Origin: Bdellovibrionota bacterium | Lineage (GTDB): Bacteria; Bdellovibrionota_C; UBA2361; JBIKUX01 | NCBI GenBank assembly: GCA_044347345.1 | Contig: JBIKUX010000003.1 | Location: 59,983-123,982, forward strand | Length of the DNA: 64,000 nucleotides | Direction: 5' to 3' | Shown here: one piece after another, positions 57,001 to 63,000 of the stretch | Position numbering within the stretch: position 1 is the first letter of the stretch | Layout: every line of letters starts with the position of its first letter | Program-made: the position numbers

Positions 57001-60000
57001 AGGTCAAGCTGTGGTAGTAGCGGATGTAGGTCAGCATCAAATGATGGCAGCTCGTTATTACTCGTTCGCTCATCATGATAGTTGGGTGACGTCAGGAGGT
57101 CTTGGAACCATGGGATTTGCTCTTCCTGCCGCCATGGGGGTGCAAGTTGGTCTCAGTAAGAAAGGAATTAAGGACATAAGCAGTAGGCCAGTTGTCATCA
57201 TTGCTGGTGACGGCGGATTTCAGATGAACTCGCAGGAGCTTATGACAATAGCTCAAGAAAGGTTGCCTGTTAAAATGATCATCTTGAATAATAACTTTCT
57301 TGGGATGGTTAGGCAGTGGCAAGAGCTATTCTTTGATAACCGTTACTCCTCAGTAGATATGCAGAATCCAGATTTTGTAAAGCTTGGTGAAGCTTACGGC
57401 ATTACCTCCAGTCGCGTTTCTGAACGAGCTGATTTAGGTATTCAAATACAGCGCATGCTTGATCATAAGGGACCATTCTTGCTGGAAGTGTGTGTAGAAA
57501 CTGAGCAAAACGTGTTTCCGATGGTGCCAGCGGGAGCTAGTGTTTCAGATATTCGGCTTGAATAAAGATTAAGATGAGGAGTCAAAACGAATATGAAACA
57601 GATATTTACTATCACTGCTGATACTGAGAACCATGCTGGTGTTCTTCATAGACTGACTTCAGTTTTTACCAGAAGAAAAGTTAATATTGAAAGCTTATGT
57701 GTCTCTGAGACTCATGTAGACGGCATCTCTCGATTTACGATAAGCGTGAAATTAGAGGAAGTACAGGTTCAGAAGATCATAGCTCAGATAGCTCGCATAA
57801 TTGAAGTTAAATATGTAGCTTATTATACAGATAATCAACTTTTATTTAAGGAATTAGCTTTTTTGAAAATCGCGGTATCTAGTATTGAAGAACGCCGTAG
57901 TGTAGAAGATGTAGCTAGGCGTTATAATTCAAGCGTAGCTTTGGTAGATGATCGAACTATAGTGCTTGAAAAAATAGGTTCTGAGGCTGATATCTCCTCG
58001 CTTTATCATCTGTTATCCGAATACCGCATACTTGAGTTTGTGAGATCTGGCCGTATTGCAGTAACTCGCTTAAGTGATGTGACTCGCTTTAGTGAGGATT
58101 CCGATGATCGCTCCAGCAAGGCGCGAATGGTTATTCTCTCTACTCCGCCAGTAGTTTCTTAGAGTCAACATACTTGTGCTATGGGTCATGGTGATGGAGT
58201 AACTCTCAGCAAGTAGTATAAAATTTCCACTAAAAATTAGCTCAGTTTAAACGTGTGTAGGAGCCCTAATGTATCGGATAAGAAACTTTTTAACTAAGGA
58301 AGAAGTTCATCCTTCCAATCATGTTTATTGTGATGGCGATACTCCTTGGGAAGTTTCCATGGATCTTAATGAAATTCGAACTAAGGTAAACTCAGAATTT
58401 TTTCGTCGTTCTCCGGCGGTAGTATCAAAATATTTTCCTTTTTTGCCAGTAAAAGACTACTCTTCTTTTGTTACATTAAATGAGGGTGGCACGCCTCTAC
58501 TGCGCAGTAAGGTAATTGGACCAAATCTTGGGATCGATCTTTATTTTAAACAAGAGACACAAAATCCAACAGGATCTTTTAAAGACCGAGGATCAGCTGT
58601 TGAGCTAACCGTGGCAAAAGAATTAGGTGTTAGTGCTATTTCTGTAGCCTCCACTGGTAATATGGCGGCCTCTTGTTCGTGCTACGCTGCGGCAGCTGGT
58701 ATGCCATGTTTTGTTTTTGTTCCTGAAGACACTCCTGCTTCAAAGTTGTCTCAATCTATCGCGTTTGGTGGAAAAATTGTTCAAGTGAAAGGTAGTTACG
58801 ATGATGCTGCTAGACTTGCCGAGCAAGTGGCAGTTGAACTTGGATTTTATCTAGCCGGTGATTATGCTTTTAGAGTTGAAGGGCAAAAGACAGCGGCATT
58901 TGAGTTAGTTGATCAGCTTTTTTTTGATCCGCCTGAGCTGATTTTTATACCGATGGGATGTGGCACTAATATAACAGGTTATCAAAAAGGTTTTGATGAG
59001 TATAAAGCACTTGGTTTTATTGACCGGCTTCCTAGACTAATTGGAACTCAAGCAGCTGGAGCTAAGAGTATAGTGGATGCGTATGACAAGAGGGCTCGGG
59101 ATGTAACTCCACTTAAAACATTGAATACTATCGCTTCAGCAATTTCCGTTAAAAAGCCCCTCGATGGAACAAAAGCGCTTGATGCGATTTATCGGTCTGA
59201 AGGAATGGCGCTTGCTGTGACTGACGAGGAAATACTAAGAGCACAGTACGAACTATCTCGAGGAGAGGGAATTTATGTTGAAGCTTCTTGTGCTACAACG
59301 ATTGCTGCACTCAAGAAGTTAGTCGATATTGAAGGGGCACCACGTGGAAGGGTTGTATGTGTGCTCACCGGTGACGGCCTAAAGGATCCGTCCGCAATAC
59401 TCAAAATTGCCCTGAAGCCGCCAACCATTTATCCGGAGGTGCGAGAGTTCCAACGGTTGTATGAAGGCGGCCGTTTTGCGCGAAGTGCGGTTGCTTTTGT
59501 GAAAAGAGAAGAAATTTTATTCTCTTCTTTACCCTCAACTGATGCCATTCAGGAAGTAATTACGAGGTATCTTCCGACTATAAACACTCGAACAACTGAT
59601 GACAGAGAGTCTCAAAAGAACTGTGATAAGCTTTCTTTTGAAGAGTTAACTTCTTTTCAACGAGCGATAGGAAGATTTCTTAAAAAAGGGAAGCATGTTA
59701 GTTTTGCGGATTTGCAAGATATACTGCAAGGAGTGTTTGCTTCCTCTGAAGAAACAATACCGGCGCTAGTTGTTGAAGACTTTGAAGTTCGTACCTCACT
59801 AGATGCTCCTCCGTCAGCTCGTGTTATCGTTCGTATTGGAAACCATATTTTTGAAGCTAGTGATACTGGTGTAGGACCAGTCGACGCAGTAATAAACGCT
59901 CTTCGTAAAGCTTGTGGAAACGCAGTCTCTTTTTCTTTAGATAACTTTAATGTTGCTATTCGCAGTCAAGGTACCGATGCTGTTGTCGTGGTTGAGATGA

Positions 60001-63000
60001 AACTTTCACGAGAGGGTAATTTCTCCTCAGCGGTAGGTACTTCCCCCGATGTAATTCAAGCTTCTATAGAAGCATTTCAAGCTGCATATAACGGTCTACC
60101 AAAATAGGTAACCCCGTAACTAGGTAATTAGAGGTGATAGGACTGTTGGCTACTAGGGTAGAGTCGGGTGGATAACTGGATATTTTTGGCCATCCATCCG
60201 GCTTTTTTTTTCTTTTACTCGGTCGTTTAACACACTATCCAAATAGAGTATCTGGTTAAATTATTGAAAAATAGGCTTTAATAAGCGCAGCTAGAAGTGG
60301 CGTATCTTTTGCTAATTTTTAGTGTTCGAGAAGGAGTTGTACCTTGATATTAACTTAGCTTCTTTAAGAGACTTTCCGCTATGGAATCTATTGAATCAGG
60401 CTTATCACTTTTTAATCGTAAAATAATTACCACTGATGAAAGAGATTCGATAACTACATCTAATCCGTATTCCACTACAGATACCACATCTGTTTCTGAG
60501 CAATTTTCATCACTTCTGGATAAATTTGAAGCTAAGCCTAAAACAAAATCTCTGCGAAATAGCTCAGGTGGGGCACTACGCCAGTCTATTCAAAATGAAG
60601 TAGTAGAAGTGGCTTCCGCTGTAGAACAAAAGATGCCGAAGTATTTGAGGTCATTCGAAGAATCTCATTCTACAAAGAAAGTTGATTCTTCCTCGCGAAA
60701 TCTGAGTAAACCTAGTCTTAACGAGTCATCTTCGTCAGAGTTACAAGCGATTAAAACTACCAAAGAATCTGTTGATACAGAGGAAGAAGTTATAACTGAG
60801 GCTTCACGAGAAACAGAAATTTTTGAAAATGAGGTTTCTAATGATGAAGGTATCGATGAGAAGAGCTTGGAGAAAAGCGAATGCGAGTTCGTAAAAATTG
60901 AAGAAATATTATTAACACCGGAAAAAATATTTGATCAGGAACAAATTCTGGCTGAGGACGTCAATACGGGAGAAGAAACTCAAATTATAGATAACCACTC
61001 TTTTGGGTATTCTAACTGCACAGAACAGCAAGCAAAGCTATCAGATAACTTAAAACAGCAGGCGCAAAATTCTATAACGGAAGATCTAACTAGCAACCAA
61101 GGAAAATCTCTTAACAATGAATATAACATTATTGATAAAGATATTACTGTTCCTAACGATACCGCTATCCCTGTTAAGGAATCATTGTTTGAAGGCAGTG
61201 AGGTACAAAGTGATGAGGAAACCATTAAGGTTTCCGATTCAGAGCAAATTTTCCCCCAAGACTATGGCTCGGTAAAAGAACTAGTTGAGCCAACTAATAA
61301 ATTAAATTCAGATATTGTATTTAAAGAACAATCAGAGAGTGATAACTCTGATATACTTTTACAACCTCACAAAGAATCACAAATTGATACACTTTCTAAA
61401 ACGGAAACAGGAGAAATTATCCGTAGTGACAGAGATAAAAGTGAATTTGAAGAAGCCAATATTATAAGTGAAAATAAAGCTGTTAACTCTAACTCCACTG
61501 GTGAGCAAATATCTCCTCCTTCAGTAAAATCCGAAATCCATCCAGCAATTTTATCACTTTCAAATAGTGTAATGGGTAGAGCCACTCCGGCTTCGGCTGA
61601 AGAATCTTTATCCAAAAGTTTGCCTCAAGTGGCCTCTCAGTCTCAGCTGGCGCTAAGAGCATCAGGCAGTAGCAGAGGCAGCACTAATAATGCAACCTCT
61701 GCTACTGCCTTGCCGCTTCAACAACAGGGAGAAATGCATCGTAGCTCTGAAGAGAAAAAAGTTCCTAGATTACCCCCGTCCTTACATTCTCGACTTTTAG
61801 AGCAGGTAAAAAAAATGCTTCATGATGTTGAGCAGTTAACAAAAAATGGTAGTAGTCTTTCATTTAGATTAGATCCACCTCAGCTCGGTAATGTTCACGT
61901 TTATATGCGAGTGCACGGTGGCACACTTCATGCTCGTATTTCTCCCGATAACAGTGAGGTGGTTAATTTCTTGAGAGATAAGGGGGGAGAGATTCATGAA
62001 TCTTTAAGAGAAGTTGGGCTGTCATTTGAAGAGATAAAAGTATCATTTGGGGGAACGAACATATCACACGGAGGTGATAATCAATTTCAAGGAAGTAACC
62101 AACAGGAAATGGGGGATAGTTTTTATAATCAGACGAATATTTTATCTCATTTTGGTGACGTGGCTCCATCACAATCAGCAGTTAAGGTTCAGCATTTAAA
62201 CTCTGTTAGAAACGAAGTCAAAGATTATTGGGTAGCATAATTAGATTCAACGGTAAATATGACTGAATCGACTAAAGACGTTCTTTCAAATATCACCTCA
62301 CTTGGAGCTGCATCAGCTAGCAACCGCAGTAAAAAATCAAAAGATCGTGGGCAAATTGGTCAAGATGAATTTCTGACCTTATTAGTACAACAACTAAAGG
62401 CGCAAGATCCGCTCAATCCCATGAACAACGAAGAATTTGCTGTCAACTTGGCACAATTCTCACAGCTTGAGCAACTCATTTCAATAAATGAAAAGTTCGA
62501 TGCTGCCTCTAATTCTTCTGTTTCAAGTTTGGCTGGTCTTCTCGGGCAAGAAGTGACGCTTAGCCGAGAAACAGTTTCATTGAGTGAAGATTCTGCTTCT
62601 GCGCTTAGAGTTAATGCTCCAAGCGGTGCTCAATCATTAACAATTAGTCTCAAAAATAAAGAAGGTGGGGTAGTTGATAGTATCGAAGTGCCGGTGACTC
62701 AATCAGGAGTTCAGCGGATTGATTTGAAAGGCTTAACACGTCTGGAAGGAGAATTTGGGATTGCTGTTTCTGCCAACACCGGAAGCGGCGCTCAAGTGCC
62801 CATTCAAGCATCTGTAGTGGGCACTGTAACCGGCTTTATTCCGGGATCAGAGCCAACTTTAATCTTAGATGGTGGTGAAGAGGTTCAACTAAAAGATATA
62901 AAACGCGTAGATGTACCCATAGATACAAATTCAAATTCGCAACAAAAATAAGTCGTAAGCTTGGCGAATGGATATTGCCGAGAAATAGTGCCTTTCAGGT

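Follow-up and report, generated by a model that had tools for sequence, protein, structure and literature searches.

The window, the whole 64,000-nucleotide stretch of DNA analysed here, carries a gene (P0001) that joins a threonine synthase (ThrC)-like catalytic domain to a regulatory domain of the LeuA/CimA type. It lies directly downstream of ilvB and ilvN on the same strand.

The fusion gene and its surroundings

53221-54510 (-): valine-pyruvate-type aminotransferase, divergently transcribed (NF006967, 573 bits)
54532-55608 (-): leuB, divergently transcribed (TIGR00169, 422 bits)
55799..57565 (+): ilvB, acetolactate synthase large subunit, upstream in the operon of the fusion gene (TIGR00118, 694.6 bits, cut-off 538)
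57593..58162 (+): ilvN, acetolactate synthase small subunit (TIGR00119, 97.7 bits, cut-off 56.9)
58259..58263 (+): Shine-Dalgarno-like AGGAG, 5 nt upstream of the ATG, by sequence inspection
58269..60107 (+): fusion gene, 612 aa; GDY-type ThrC-like PLP domain, linker, LeuA/CimA-type regulatory domain
58470..59372 (+): PALP (fold-type II PLP) catalytic domain with class-I threonine synthase fold, residues 68-368 (Pfam, 238.6 bits)
59409..59699 (+): linker, residues 381-477, from the pLDDT profile, with a low-confidence stretch at 439-451
59700..60092 (+): LeuA_dimer (PF08502) regulatory domain, residues 478-608, two beta-beta-beta-alpha units (Pfam, 86.7 bits)

The reading frame at 58269-60107(+) is uninterrupted. 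The N-terminus of the protein is kept across 50 homologues, with Y2 nearly invariant, and no terminator-like site was found in the gap between ilvN and the fusion gene. This bears out the first-pass annotation, which had described a 612-aa threonine synthase and LeuA-type fusion right after ilvB-ilvN. Its profile score (229 bits against 167 for TIGR00260) and its best PDB match, M. tuberculosis ThrC, were also reproduced: TIGR00260 gives 229.4 bits with a cut-off of 167.1, and the nearest solved relative is 2D1F (E 2.4e-73). None of the more specific ThrC equivalogs is passed (NF006050 gives 281, cut-off 303), and the protein scores 101 bits on the IlvA profile TIGR01127 (cut-off 379) and 70 bits on TIGR01124. 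The AF2 model has a mean pLDDT of 88.0 and a pTM of 0.83. All 120 database matches listed combine PALP and LeuA_dimer, as had been claimed; 119 are 50-74% identical to the fusion protein and the remaining one is a 498-aa fragment at 100%. Where the source names these matches, the label is always 'threonine synthase'. A literature search found no paper describing a fusion of a ThrC-like domain with PF08502.

The canonical thrABC genes reported earlier are indeed kept, in an operon apart from the ilvBN-fusion operon:

21127..26216 (-): canonical threonine operon thrA-thrB-thrC
23553-26216 (-): thrA (AK-HSD)
22588-23556 (-): thrB (GHMP kinase)
21127-22551 (-): canonical class-II thrC, 20% identical to the fusion protein (E 0.014)

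The genome's second LeuA_dimer protein is a true LeuA (NF002086, 702 bits, cut-off 532) and there are no others, in line with the earlier claim. A PF00585 search of the genome (95.8% complete) gave 0 matches. The first-pass annotation had concluded from this that an IlvA regulatory domain is missing; the count holds, but PF00585 represents IlvA poorly in this phylum, since it overlooks the common IlvA of ~400 aa that TIGR01127 detects. Another possible source of 2-oxobutanoate is a 310-aa Ser/Thr-dehydratase-like PALP protein (C59:55035-55967; TIGR01127, 177 bits, cut-off 379), and two Cys/Met-metabolism PLP enzymes are further conceivable sources.

Loops of the catalytic domain

The best Foldseek matches for the catalytic domain were 2D1F, 2ZSJ, 1V7C and 6CGQ, with target-normalised TM of 0.89-0.92, and its sequence identity to real threonine synthases is 42-50%. 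We use "GDY" for the clade of ThrC-like domains that holds it; the clade is monophyletic (39 tips, SH-like support 0.991). The catalytic lysine and the signature loops lie at the following positions:

58581..58583 (+): Lys105 of the FKDRG motif, aligned with Lys69 of M. tuberculosis ThrC and invariant in 50 fused homologues; we take it to be the PLP Schiff-base lysine
58650..58664 (+): STGNM loop, residues 128-132, with Met132 where canonical STGNT has Thr; the loop does not vary among 50 fused proteins
58857..58874 (+): G197-D198-Y199-A-F-R202 loop, replacing canonical N-S-x-N-P-x-R with the Arg retained; G197, D198, Y199 and R202 invariant in 50 fused proteins
58956..58970 (+): G230-C-G-T-N234 loop, replacing canonical GNAGN; G230, G232, T233 and N234 invariant in 50 fused proteins

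The class-I threonine synthases of M. tuberculosis (2D1F), T. thermophilus (1UIM/1V7C), B. subtilis (6CGQ) and A. aeolicus (2ZSJ) have the same fold as the fusion protein (target-normalised TM about 0.9, 37-42% identity in structural alignment) and share with it the PLP lysine, the S-T-G-N loop, R-x-E-G-x-K and T-G-x-G-L-K-D. The fusion protein differs from them in STGN-M, the shorter G-D-Y, GxGTN and Tyr177 for Phe, as well as in its N-terminal 50-residue extension, its C-terminal regulatory domain and its ilv rather than hom/thrB context. The GDY loop is one residue shorter than the canonical N-S-x-N loop, and M132, G197 and D198 stand where 49 canonical ThrCs have Thr, Asn and Ser (at least 98% conserved). 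The residue after STGN is Met in 52/52 GDY sequences and Thr in 49/49 canonical ones, the two groups being themselves defined by motif. In these loops the GDY clade departs from both solved and hom/thrB-linked threonine synthases. The altered loops are presumably those that hold the substrate phosphate in threonine synthase, and we take the canonical Asn and Ser to be ligands of that phosphate, as in T. thermophilus ThrC. The GDY clade keeps Arg202 and Asn234, which we assume to be two of five ligands of the phosphate.

One explanation is that the protein is a real threonine synthase isozyme, which converts O-phosphohomoserine to threonine and is tuned by branched-chain amino acids through the fused domain, while a separate dehydratase makes 2-oxobutanoate. 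Such tuning would let it feed threonine into the isoleucine branch. The TIGR00260 score (229, cut-off 167), the fold and 42-50% identity to solved ThrCs, the retained Arg202 and Asn234, and the name 'threonine synthase' from every naming source among the listed matches are consistent with an isozyme, and the PALP-only Ser/Thr-dehydratase-like gene could act downstream. The plant threonine synthase has its effector site in an N-terminal extension at the dimer interface and no fused PF08502. As an allosteric precedent, the Arabidopsis enzyme (1E5X/2C2B) is a true threonine synthase with a class-I-type ThrC fold, controlled by a metabolite of a competing branch; activation of the plant enzyme by SAM is mentioned in PMC13381585. 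Against an isozyme stands the invariant replacement of three residues, one of them by Asp, at positions where conservation in canonical ThrCs is at least 98%.

A further comparison is the moonlighting ThrC of Microcystis aeruginosa. According to PMC12172450, this enzyme converts threonine to 2-oxobutanoate in vitro with sigmoidal kinetics, and like the fusion protein it is set off from canonical ThrC and extended at both termini. It differs in its loops, which in the supplement of PMC12172450 read STGNL, N-x-R-P-Y-Y and G-S-G-S-L and not GDY, taking the supplement sequence to be the studied thrC_1. It also differs in being without PF08502 and in remaining a threonine synthase, with deamination described as a side function in that paper. 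A divergent loop is therefore no proof that O-phosphohomoserine has been lost as a substrate, because the Microcystis ThrC, of yet another loop type, still uses it (PMC12172450).

Neighbourhoods and phyletic distribution

In 15/18 intact fused loci examined, our own locus counted, ilvB-ilvN(-ilvC) lies directly upstream on the same strand, and two genomes (G114 and G048) have ilvD and/or ilvE downstream of the fusion. Sampling was widened to 80 metagenome loci. Of the 23 GDY-type genes there, 8 had ilv/leu neighbours and none had hom/thrA or thrB neighbours; of the 55 canonical STGNT/NSxNP genes, 41 had thrA/thrB neighbours and 11 had ilv/leu neighbours. One genome (G018) has an unfused GDY orthologue between ilvC and ilvD, and in this cluster a canonical thrC follows thrA. 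What is decisive is the subfamily of the catalytic domain and not the fusion.

Some loci look different. GDY copies of one family (f28) are without ilv context, three loci (L062, L069, L071) have fused genes amid housekeeping genes, and at L074 an STGNM-type gene adjoins ThiI, ThiF and a class-V aminotransferase. ThrC-like proteins have also diversified, with several further loop types among 150 representatives. These observations would suit another fold-type II PLP reaction (serine dehydration, racemisation or beta/gamma-replacement) or a non-catalytic sensor, the ilv placement reflecting regulation or a side branch. We regard this as improbable: it is ilvBNC, ilvD and ilvE in particular that accompany the gene, in genomes where one step of the pathway is missing, and the invariance of PLP lysine and core catalytic motifs across 50 fused proteins makes a non-catalytic role unlikely.

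The first-pass annotation had argued for complementarity from the fact that the fusion and PF00585 never overlap. That argument is invalid because PF00585 misses the usual IlvA of the phylum, so IlvA and CimA were recounted with TIGR01127 and TIGR00977 in 124 genomes, 46 of them ilvC-positive. Twelve of the 20 ilvC-positive genomes with a GDY gene lack both a full IlvA and a CimA. Among the 26 without a GDY gene, IlvA occurs in 18 and CimA in a further 6, which leaves only 2 that lack both. Over the whole set IlvA occurs in 4/24 GDY genomes vs 70/100 others, and these phyletic counts are not independent because the genomes are related and many are incomplete MAGs. Complementarity between the fusion and IlvA survives the recount. 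Replacement of IlvA is frequent and not exclusive, since 8/20 ilvC-positive GDY genomes carry IlvA (G035, G045, G063, G116) or CimA (G009, G029, G031, G033). In 9 of the 12 GDY genomes without IlvA or CimA, an IlvA search at E <= 1e-32 gave no match or a single match; the single match in G114 and G027 is the fusion itself, as listed, and that in G034, G048 and G120 is presumably the fusion too.

A separate canonical thrC is present in 22/24 GDY genomes, including all 20 ilvC-positive carriers. The other two (G013 and G014, 96% and 95% complete) keep the fusion without canonical thrC, ilvC or IlvA, and a search of both for homoserine dehydrogenase (PF00742) gave 0 matches, while it was found in 14/14 control genomes. 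An enzyme acting on O-phosphohomoserine would have no substrate there, because homoserine dehydrogenase is absent. The GDY protein is not needed as a threonine synthase. With no full IlvA or CimA in 12/20 ilvC-positive carriers and hom/thrB neighbours at 0/23 GDY loci vs 41/55 canonical loci, we think it unlikely that the protein is a threonine synthase isozyme.

The distribution also bears on an isoleucine route that bypasses free threonine, in which O-phosphohomoserine is turned directly into 2-oxobutanoate, phosphate and ammonia by gamma-elimination with no final water addition. A remodelled phosphate site could free phosphate early and abolish the water step. PMC5501846, citing Murakawa 2011, has threonine synthase turning the vinylglycine-type intermediate into 2-oxobutanoate. 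Retention of Arg202 and Asn234 and the canonical thrC in all 20 ilvC-positive carriers also speak for this route; for 18 of these the O-phosphohomoserine supply is presumed, since the hom check covered G000 and G018, with homoserine kinase found only in G000. The Asp198 within the ThrC phosphate-binding loop and the loss of Thr, Asn and Ser there, the enzyme's persistence in G013 and G014, and the lack of any GDY gene beside hom/thrB among the 23 metagenome loci make the direct route doubtful.

Regulation and proposed reaction

The best solved profile match of the regulatory domain is 3F6G/3F6H (E 2.8e-8), and a model of the C-terminal 177 residues matched 3F6G, the LiCMS regulatory domain with isoleucine, in Foldseek (E 4.6e-8; target-normalised TM 0.78-0.80), and M. 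tuberculosis LeuA came next. The linker also holds two helices matching the LeuA subdomain that precedes the regulatory domain, and residues 454-610 are 28% identical to 354-507 of the genome's own LeuA (E 4e-10). The fused regulatory domains form a separate clade that falls outside both the LeuA and the CimA clades of the phylum. One loop is a candidate for effector binding:

59868..59885 (+): G534-V-G-P-V-D539 loop, candidate effector/dimer-interface loop; G534, G536 and D539 invariant in 50 fused proteins

This loop falls within the predicted homodimer interface. The homodimer model has an ipSAE of 0.54 (best control 0.00), a mark reached by 20/30 proteins solved as pairs and 1/23 solved as single chains, and may only mirror likeness to similar dimers that have been solved; contact agreement between runs was at least 94% and pLDDT at least 74. 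Leptospira interrogans CimA (3F6G/3F6H) and LeuA share the C-terminal PF08502 with the fusion protein, which in contrast lacks their HMGL-like TIM-barrel catalytic domain. In CimA, PF08502 binds and senses L-isoleucine and gates an alternative entry to isoleucine synthesis, according to the structure entry titles and PMC13381585. The C-terminal domain of the fusion protein probably dimerises and binds a branched-chain amino acid, giving feedback inhibition, and the effector would most likely be isoleucine.

Operon context, phyletic gap-filling and the remodelled active site together suggest that the fusion protein is probably a 2-oxobutanoate-forming enzyme regulated by branched-chain amino acids. 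Of the earlier proposal, a regulated isoleucine-entry enzyme in place of IlvA remains the best-supported reading, without exclusive replacement. It had left the substrate as O-phosphohomoserine or threonine. We favour threonine, and thus a threonine ammonia-lyase, because of the Asp introduced in the remodelled loop and the persistence of the fusion in two genomes without homoserine dehydrogenase; O-phosphohomoserine is a possible substrate, with about one quarter of the weight of this explanation. The passed TIGR00260 cut-off, the 42-50% identity to real threonine synthases and the retained Arg202 and Asn234 count against the favoured reading. Co-occurrence with IlvA or CimA, the other 2-oxobutanoate sources and the f28 copies outside ilv context count against it as well.

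IlvA (EC 4.3.1.19; TIGR01124/TIGR01127) likewise couples a catalytic domain of PLP fold-type II to an amino-acid sensor at the C-terminus. Its gene occurs together with ilv genes, and within the phylum IlvA and the GDY gene have largely complementary distributions. Both the reaction proposed here and its feedback logic would match those of IlvA. IlvA belongs to another branch of the fold, and its regulatory domain is ACT-like (PF00585) vs PF08502 in the fusion. Two sources (bioRxiv 10.64898/2026.09.15.751699; PMC12172450) describe deamination of threonine to 2-oxobutanoate by threonine synthases of B. subtilis, T. thermophilus and M. aeruginosa, and rescue of a B. subtilis ilvA mutant by derepressed hom-thrCB.

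In the proposed mechanism, L-threonine would form an external aldimine on Lys105, and the alpha-proton and beta-hydroxyl would then be eliminated, which runs the final threonine synthase step backwards. Aminocrotonate would leave the enzyme, and its hydrolysis would yield 2-oxobutanoate and ammonia. Released phosphate assists the water step in true threonine synthases; here the invariant Asp198 and Tyr199 of the shortened GDY loop may supply the acid/base function without phosphate. A PLP enzyme descended from class-I threonine synthase would now make 2-oxobutanoate, the precursor that acetolactate synthase (ilvBN) needs for isoleucine, and would do the job of IlvA.

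The fusion gene, its locus and its genome

The fusion gene reads as one open frame for a 612-aa protein, P0001, with an AGGAG 5 nt 5' of its ATG. Its surroundings and the two domains of its product are as follows.

Features of the fusion-gene locus and domains of P0001
21127-26216, minus strand: separate thrA-thrB-thrC operon, same window
55799-57565, plus strand: ilvB, upstream of the fusion gene
57593-58162, plus strand: ilvN, upstream of the fusion gene
58269-60107, plus strand: fusion gene, open frame, 612 aa
P0001 residues 68-368: PALP, the catalytic PLP domain (Pfam, 238.6 bits)
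P0001 residues 478-608: LeuA_dimer (PF08502), the regulatory domain (Pfam, 86.7 bits)
60381-62951, plus strand: fliK-like gene (flagellar hook-length control, 619 aa) and flgD (hook-capping), after the fusion gene

Since the fliK-like gene and flgD begin 273 nt past the fusion gene, the ilv operon ends at the fusion gene. No terminator-like site was found between ilvN and the fusion gene, and the scan for promoters and terminators did not rise above shuffled expectation (3 promoter-like sites versus 10.9 expected; 3 terminator-like sites versus 3.9). Near the ilv genes, leuB and a valine-pyruvate-type aminotransferase gene are transcribed divergently. The host genome, G000 (2.53 Mb, 68 contigs, 95.8% complete), has one true LeuA and, outside the fusion locus, ilvC, ilvD, an ilvE candidate and leuCD; PF00585 has no match in it. 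The class-II ThrC of the thrA-thrB-thrC operon is just 20% identical to P0001. The first-pass annotation had described a two-domain fusion directly after ilvB-ilvN alongside a separate thr operon, and this was confirmed by ORF, Pfam, NCBIfam and neighbour evidence. It had also stated that the best database relatives share the PALP+LeuA_dimer architecture, which holds in 120/120 matches listed; among these, every naming source calls the relatives 'threonine synthase'.

P0001 passes the generic NCBIfam thrC model TIGR00260 (229.4 bits, cut-off 167.1), and none of the narrower threonine-synthase equivalogs is over its cut-off (best NF006050, 281 versus 303). LeuA family models match residues 454-609 only. 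PF08502 is thus shared with LeuA and citramalate synthase (CimA), whereas the HMGL-like TIM barrel belongs to those enzymes only, P0001 having no PF00682 match in Pfam. Models of threonine deaminase (IlvA) score P0001 below cut-off (TIGR01127, 101.2 bits versus 378.75; TIGR01124, 70.3 versus 411.3), and the ACT-like PF00585 domain is absent from its Pfam matches.

Elsewhere in the genome, outside the window, a 310-aa PALP-only gene resembling Ser/Thr dehydratases or racemases (G000:C59:55035-55967, plus strand) directly follows ribBA and ribH. Its product is under all NCBIfam cut-offs (NF006094, 189 bits versus 331) and might contribute a little 2-oxobutanoate in G000.

The catalytic and regulatory domains

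The catalytic domain of P0001 is 42-50% identical to solved class-I threonine synthases (2D1F, E 2.4e-73), and its predicted model (mean pLDDT 88.0) matched solved ThrCs in Foldseek with a target-normalised TM of about 0.9. K105 aligns to the PLP (Schiff-base) lysine of solved ThrC. By family HMM, model and alignment, P0001 fits a fold-type II PLP fold with a Schiff-base lysine. With the TIGR00260 cut-off passed, the ThrC fold matched and the PLP lysine aligned, P0001 could be a true threonine synthase that has gained regulation, a reading that we nevertheless consider unlikely given its substrate loops, gene neighbours and distribution.

Three loops set P0001 apart from the solved enzymes in the alignment listing. 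STGN-T of solved ThrC is STGN-M (residues 128-132), N-S-x-N-P-x-R is G-D-Y-A-F-R (residues 197-202, shorter by one residue), and G-N-A-G-N is G-C-G-T-N (residues 230-234). In T. thermophilus ThrC, Thr88, Asn154, Ser155, Arg160 and Asn188 hold the phosphate of the substrate or product. Through the alignment, we take M132, G197, D198, R202 and N234 of P0001 to be their counterparts; 3/5 positions are replaced (M132, G197, D198) and 2/5 are kept (R202, N234). The substrate-phosphate site of ThrC therefore does not appear, from this comparison, to be conserved in P0001, and the three replacements speak against a true threonine synthase.

Proteins with the STGN-M, G-D-Y and GxGTN loops are called GDY here. 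Among the best 150 representatives from an exhaustive HMMER search with P0001 residues 1-400, the GDY signature occurs in 15 fused forms and 29 shorter proteins. A FastTree phylogeny (LG+gamma) was built from 145/151 aligned sequences; the other 6, with <280 aligned positions, were left out. All 39 tips with the signature fall in a single clade (SH-like support 0.991), in which the fused forms are a subclade (0.819) with 7 unfused or fragmentary ones nested within; support for a sister relation between the GDY clade and canonical ThrC is weak (0.361). Judged by sequence, the catalytic domain of P0001 is a distinct ThrC-like subfamily. Sixteen residues do not vary across 50 fused proteins, the divergent G013 and G014 copies among them: K105, S128, G130, N131, M132, G197, D198, Y199, R202, E204, G205, K207, G230, G232, T233 and N234. 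When 52 signature-bearing proteins were compared with 49 canonical ones, positions conserved at >=85% within each group contrasted as M132/T, Y177/F, G197/N, D198/S, G232/A and T233/G; the groups were defined by motif, which makes positions 132, 197 and 198 circular.

Some relatives differ from this pattern. One metagenome contig (L074:5878-6957, plus strand) has a ThrC-like gene of STGNM type, 359 aa, that lacks the GDY loop. Its neighbours encode ThiI, ThiF and an aminotransferase of class V, a sulfur-carrier setting that points to a ThrC-like enzyme incorporating sulfur and not to a dehydratase. Four loci (L081, L084, L120, L124) form a basal GDY subclade of short proteins (370-458 aa) with G-D-Y-P-[YW]-R. 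The L081 and L084 contigs are low in GC, the neighbours at L084 and L124 are archaeal-type (DUF2099, DUF211, presenilin-type peptidase), and no ilv or thr context was seen on the contigs of the four loci. The Thermococcus 'threonine synthase' P0146, with a G-N-Y loop, groups near them.

In the regulatory region, P0001 residues 454-610 are 28% identical to the LeuA of G000 (residues 354-507, E 4e-10). A single-sequence search of PDB sequences with the C-terminal 177 aa gave no match. A profile of 18 C-terminal sequences best matched L. interrogans citramalate synthase, in its regulatory domain (3F6G/3F6H, E 2.8e-8), and reached E 0.025 with M. tuberculosis LeuA. The AF2 model of the 177 residues (pLDDT 82.7) has two beta-beta-beta-alpha units, and its best match by fold is 3F6G with bound isoleucine (E 4.6e-8, target-normalised TM 0.78-0.80), followed by LeuA. 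A homodimer of P0001 was predicted with a score of 0.54 (best control 0.00), passing a mark attained by 20/30 proteins solved as pairs and 1/23 solved as single chains; contact agreement across runs was >=94% and pLDDT >=74. Given that similar dimers have been solved, this pass may reflect mere likeness to them. The predicted interface takes in the invariant G534-G536-D539 and S592-D594 loops. P0001 is thus predicted to carry a dimerising PF08502 regulatory domain with conserved loops.

In CimA, this domain senses isoleucine (PMC13381585). In a tree of regulatory domains (26 fused, 8 CimA, 9 LeuA), the fused domains form their own clade; L147, whose domain was wrongly extracted, is to be disregarded. 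The tree points to neither LeuA nor CimA as their source and so names no effector; because of this separate clade, the effector is deduced from pathway logic rather than sequence. The regulatory domains of the G013 and G014 proteins are more divergent, with PF08502 scores of 36-41 bits versus 84-106 in the other fused proteins.

Gene neighbourhoods and phyletic pattern

Regions of +/-8 kb around the gene were surveyed in 20 related genomes, with ORFs annotated by Pfam. The order ilvB-ilvN-ilvC-fusion is found at 11/18 intact fused loci, our own locus being counted among the 18; for G010, one of the 11, ilvC was taken from the genome ilvC survey, as ORF calling there took the opposite strand. 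Another 4/18 (G000, G007, G011, G031) have ilvB-ilvN-fusion, and the remaining 3/18 (G009, G013, G014) lack an ilv neighbour. Downstream of the fusion gene lie ilvD and/or ilvE in G114 and G048, and a LeuA-like gene in G120 and G010. The G018 orthologue is unfused (413 aa) and sits between ilvC and ilvD. This cluster (L054, G018:C104:1-17419) holds ilvB, a short ilvN, ilvC, the unfused GDY-type gene, ilvD, thrA and canonical thrC. Between thrA and thrC, it encodes a 210-aa protein with weak likeness to Desulfovibrio-type homoserine kinase (NF040667, 50.8 bits, cut-off 197).

Directly downstream of the fusion gene in G010, a single 1005-aa open frame (L041:4979-7996, minus strand) joins an HMGL-like LeuA/CimA-type domain (HCS_D2, weak LeuA_dimer) to a full aconitase of LeuC type, with leuD next. 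It could represent LeuA fused to LeuC, or else a two-gene read-through.

A scan of metagenome contigs yielded 80 loci, whose neighbours were classed by tblastn with reference proteins. A contig scan with P0001 alone had given two loci and no new carriers: L006 encodes a canonical ThrC (STGNT/NSVNP) and L007 another type.

Neighbours of ThrC-like genes on metagenome contigs
GDY type: n=23; ilv/leu neighbour 8; thrA/hom or thrB neighbour 0
Canonical STGNT/NSxNP type: n=55; ilv/leu neighbour 11; thrA/hom or thrB neighbour 41
Third type: n=2; ilv/leu neighbour 0; thrA/hom or thrB neighbour 0

The regulatory domain was on the contig at 12 of the 23 GDY loci, many of these contigs being short and only 7/23 loci reaching 8 kb. 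Pfam contexts were uninformative at L060, L062, L069, L071, L074, L081, L084, L120 and L124. GDY genes show no association with hom or thrB at these loci, and they do not appear to be required as the cell's threonine synthase. The 0/23 loci beside thrA/thrB, against 41/55 for canonical genes, are a second point against a true threonine synthase.

Counting G000, there are 124 genomes in the phylum-level set, and 24 of these carry a close orthologue of the fusion gene. It is fused in one frame in 18, split by contig ends in 3 (G029, G033, G116) and unfused in 3 (G016, G017, G018); other PALP proteins in G006, G061 and G112 (E <= 1e-20) were left out of the count. Canonical thrC is over cut-off in 22/24 carriers, the exceptions being G013 and G014.

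The first-pass annotation had used PF00585 as a proxy for IlvA, which was not borne out. With PF00585, strong IlvA matches are confined to G041, G042 and G069, and 18 genomes of one genus match weakly; the proxy missed most IlvA genes, since TIGR01127 reveals a common ~400-aa IlvA, with 71 genomes having a single-frame match of >=315 bits and a further three (G069, G045, G119) having lower-scoring or contig-split genes. IlvA is present in 4/24 GDY genomes (G035, G063, G116 and, split, G045) versus 70/100 others. The set includes 46 ilvC-positive genomes, and CimA (TIGR00977) is over cut-off in 19 genomes and split in 2.

Entries to isoleucine synthesis in ilvC-positive genomes
With GDY gene: n=20; IlvA 4; CimA only 4 (G009, G029, G031, G033); neither 12
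Without GDY gene: n=26; IlvA 18; CimA only 6; neither 2 (G092, G118)

The 12 GDY genomes with neither IlvA nor CimA are G000, G003, G005, G007, G010, G011, G018, G027, G034, G048, G114 and G120; completeness is >=93% in 8 of them, and the G011 assembly has 3 contigs. One or more of the candidate 2-oxobutanoate sources (GDY, IlvA, CimA) can be found in 44/46 ilvC-positive genomes, which are related and often incomplete, so the counts are non-independent. Of these three candidates, the GDY gene is the only one found in 12/20 carriers, but 8 have IlvA or CimA as well, and other minor routes are conceivable.

Two other groups were seen in the survey. Four genomes of family f28 (G012, G015, G016, G017) have CimA (TIGR00977) well over cut-off, but a search at E <= 1e-30 detected ilvC in none of the six f28 genomes; their ilvC may be divergent, or else the citramalate synthase has another purpose. 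In genus g31, 18-20 genomes encode, alongside the ordinary ~400-aa IlvA, another IlvA-like protein, 480-626 aa long (for example, G078:C43:5746-6819 and G090:C17:12170-13162). With 160-195 bits for TIGR01127 and only 24-33 for PF00585, it is possibly a diverged threonine deaminase with two domains.

Substrate, precedents and meaning

G013 and G014 (96% and 95% complete) each have a fused gene bearing the invariant signature, and neither canonical thrC, ilvC nor IlvA was found in them. Homoserine dehydrogenase (PF00742) had no match in either genome and was detected in 14/14 control genomes. With no homoserine, O-phosphohomoserine cannot be formed, so the G013 and G014 enzyme would lack the substrate of a threonine synthase or an O-phosphohomoserine lyase and can be neither; dehydration of imported threonine fits. 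These two genomes were the only candidates for the fusion as sole threonine synthase within the phylum, and that role was rejected. A true threonine synthase is further disfavoured by the canonical thrC already present in the other 22 carriers.

Known enzymes offer precedents for such a reaction. In B. subtilis, ThrC shows weak activity as a threonine dehydratase and an ilvA mutant is rescued by derepressed hom-thrCB (bioRxiv 10.64898/2026.09.15.751699); M. aeruginosa ThrC converts threonine to 2-oxobutanoate in vitro, as do T. thermophilus and B. subtilis ThrC at high threonine (PMC12172450); and vinylglycine, too, yields 2-oxobutanoate with threonine synthase (PMC5501846). The Microcystis enzyme was considered as a GDY member and rejected, as its sequence in the supplement of PMC12172450 has another loop type. 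It still uses O-phosphohomoserine (PMC12172450), which tempers what can be drawn from the GDY loop changes. In the one literature collection covered, no paper linked LeuA_dimer with threonine synthase or dealt with the fusion architecture.

From these comparisons, we think that the fusion protein is probably a BCAA-regulated, 2-oxobutanoate-forming enzyme in place of IlvA. A threonine-synthase scaffold would have been re-tooled so that its last step runs in reverse, and coupled to a module whose usual role is the control of leucine or citramalate synthesis. Within this proposed IlvA replacement, threonine is judged a distinctly likelier substrate than O-phosphohomoserine. An isoleucine-inhibited conversion of O-phosphohomoserine to 2-oxobutanoate, phosphate and ammonia, which overlaps in part with the replacement of IlvA, has only a modest chance of being correct. 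The phosphate-assisted water addition of threonine synthase would then be disabled; the G013 and G014 enzyme, in genomes without homoserine dehydrogenase, stands against it, and such copies would have to have drifted to another substrate. If it were true, isoleucine synthesis would have a third entry beside IlvA and CimA, one that does not depend on threonine. Some other PLP reaction seems less likely still.

What appears new here, as read from sequence, is what would be a known reaction and known regulatory logic on an unexpected scaffold, in a domain fusion unreported in the literature covered. The fusion is present in several phyla; PALP+LeuA_dimer clusters in the ESM Atlas have 509, 240 and 61 members, most commonly from Balneolota and Methylomirabilota. 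If the enzyme does replace IlvA, it would be a non-orthologous replacement of threonine deaminase and would correct a systematic mis-annotation as 'threonine synthase'. It would also be a natural case of PLP-enzyme reaction specificity switched by few loop residues, and of a portable PF08502 sensor on an unrelated catalytic fold. The 'missing IlvA' gap in pathway reconstructions would be filled for at least 12/46 BCAA-prototrophic genomes of the phylum and also beyond it, where such a gap is probable.
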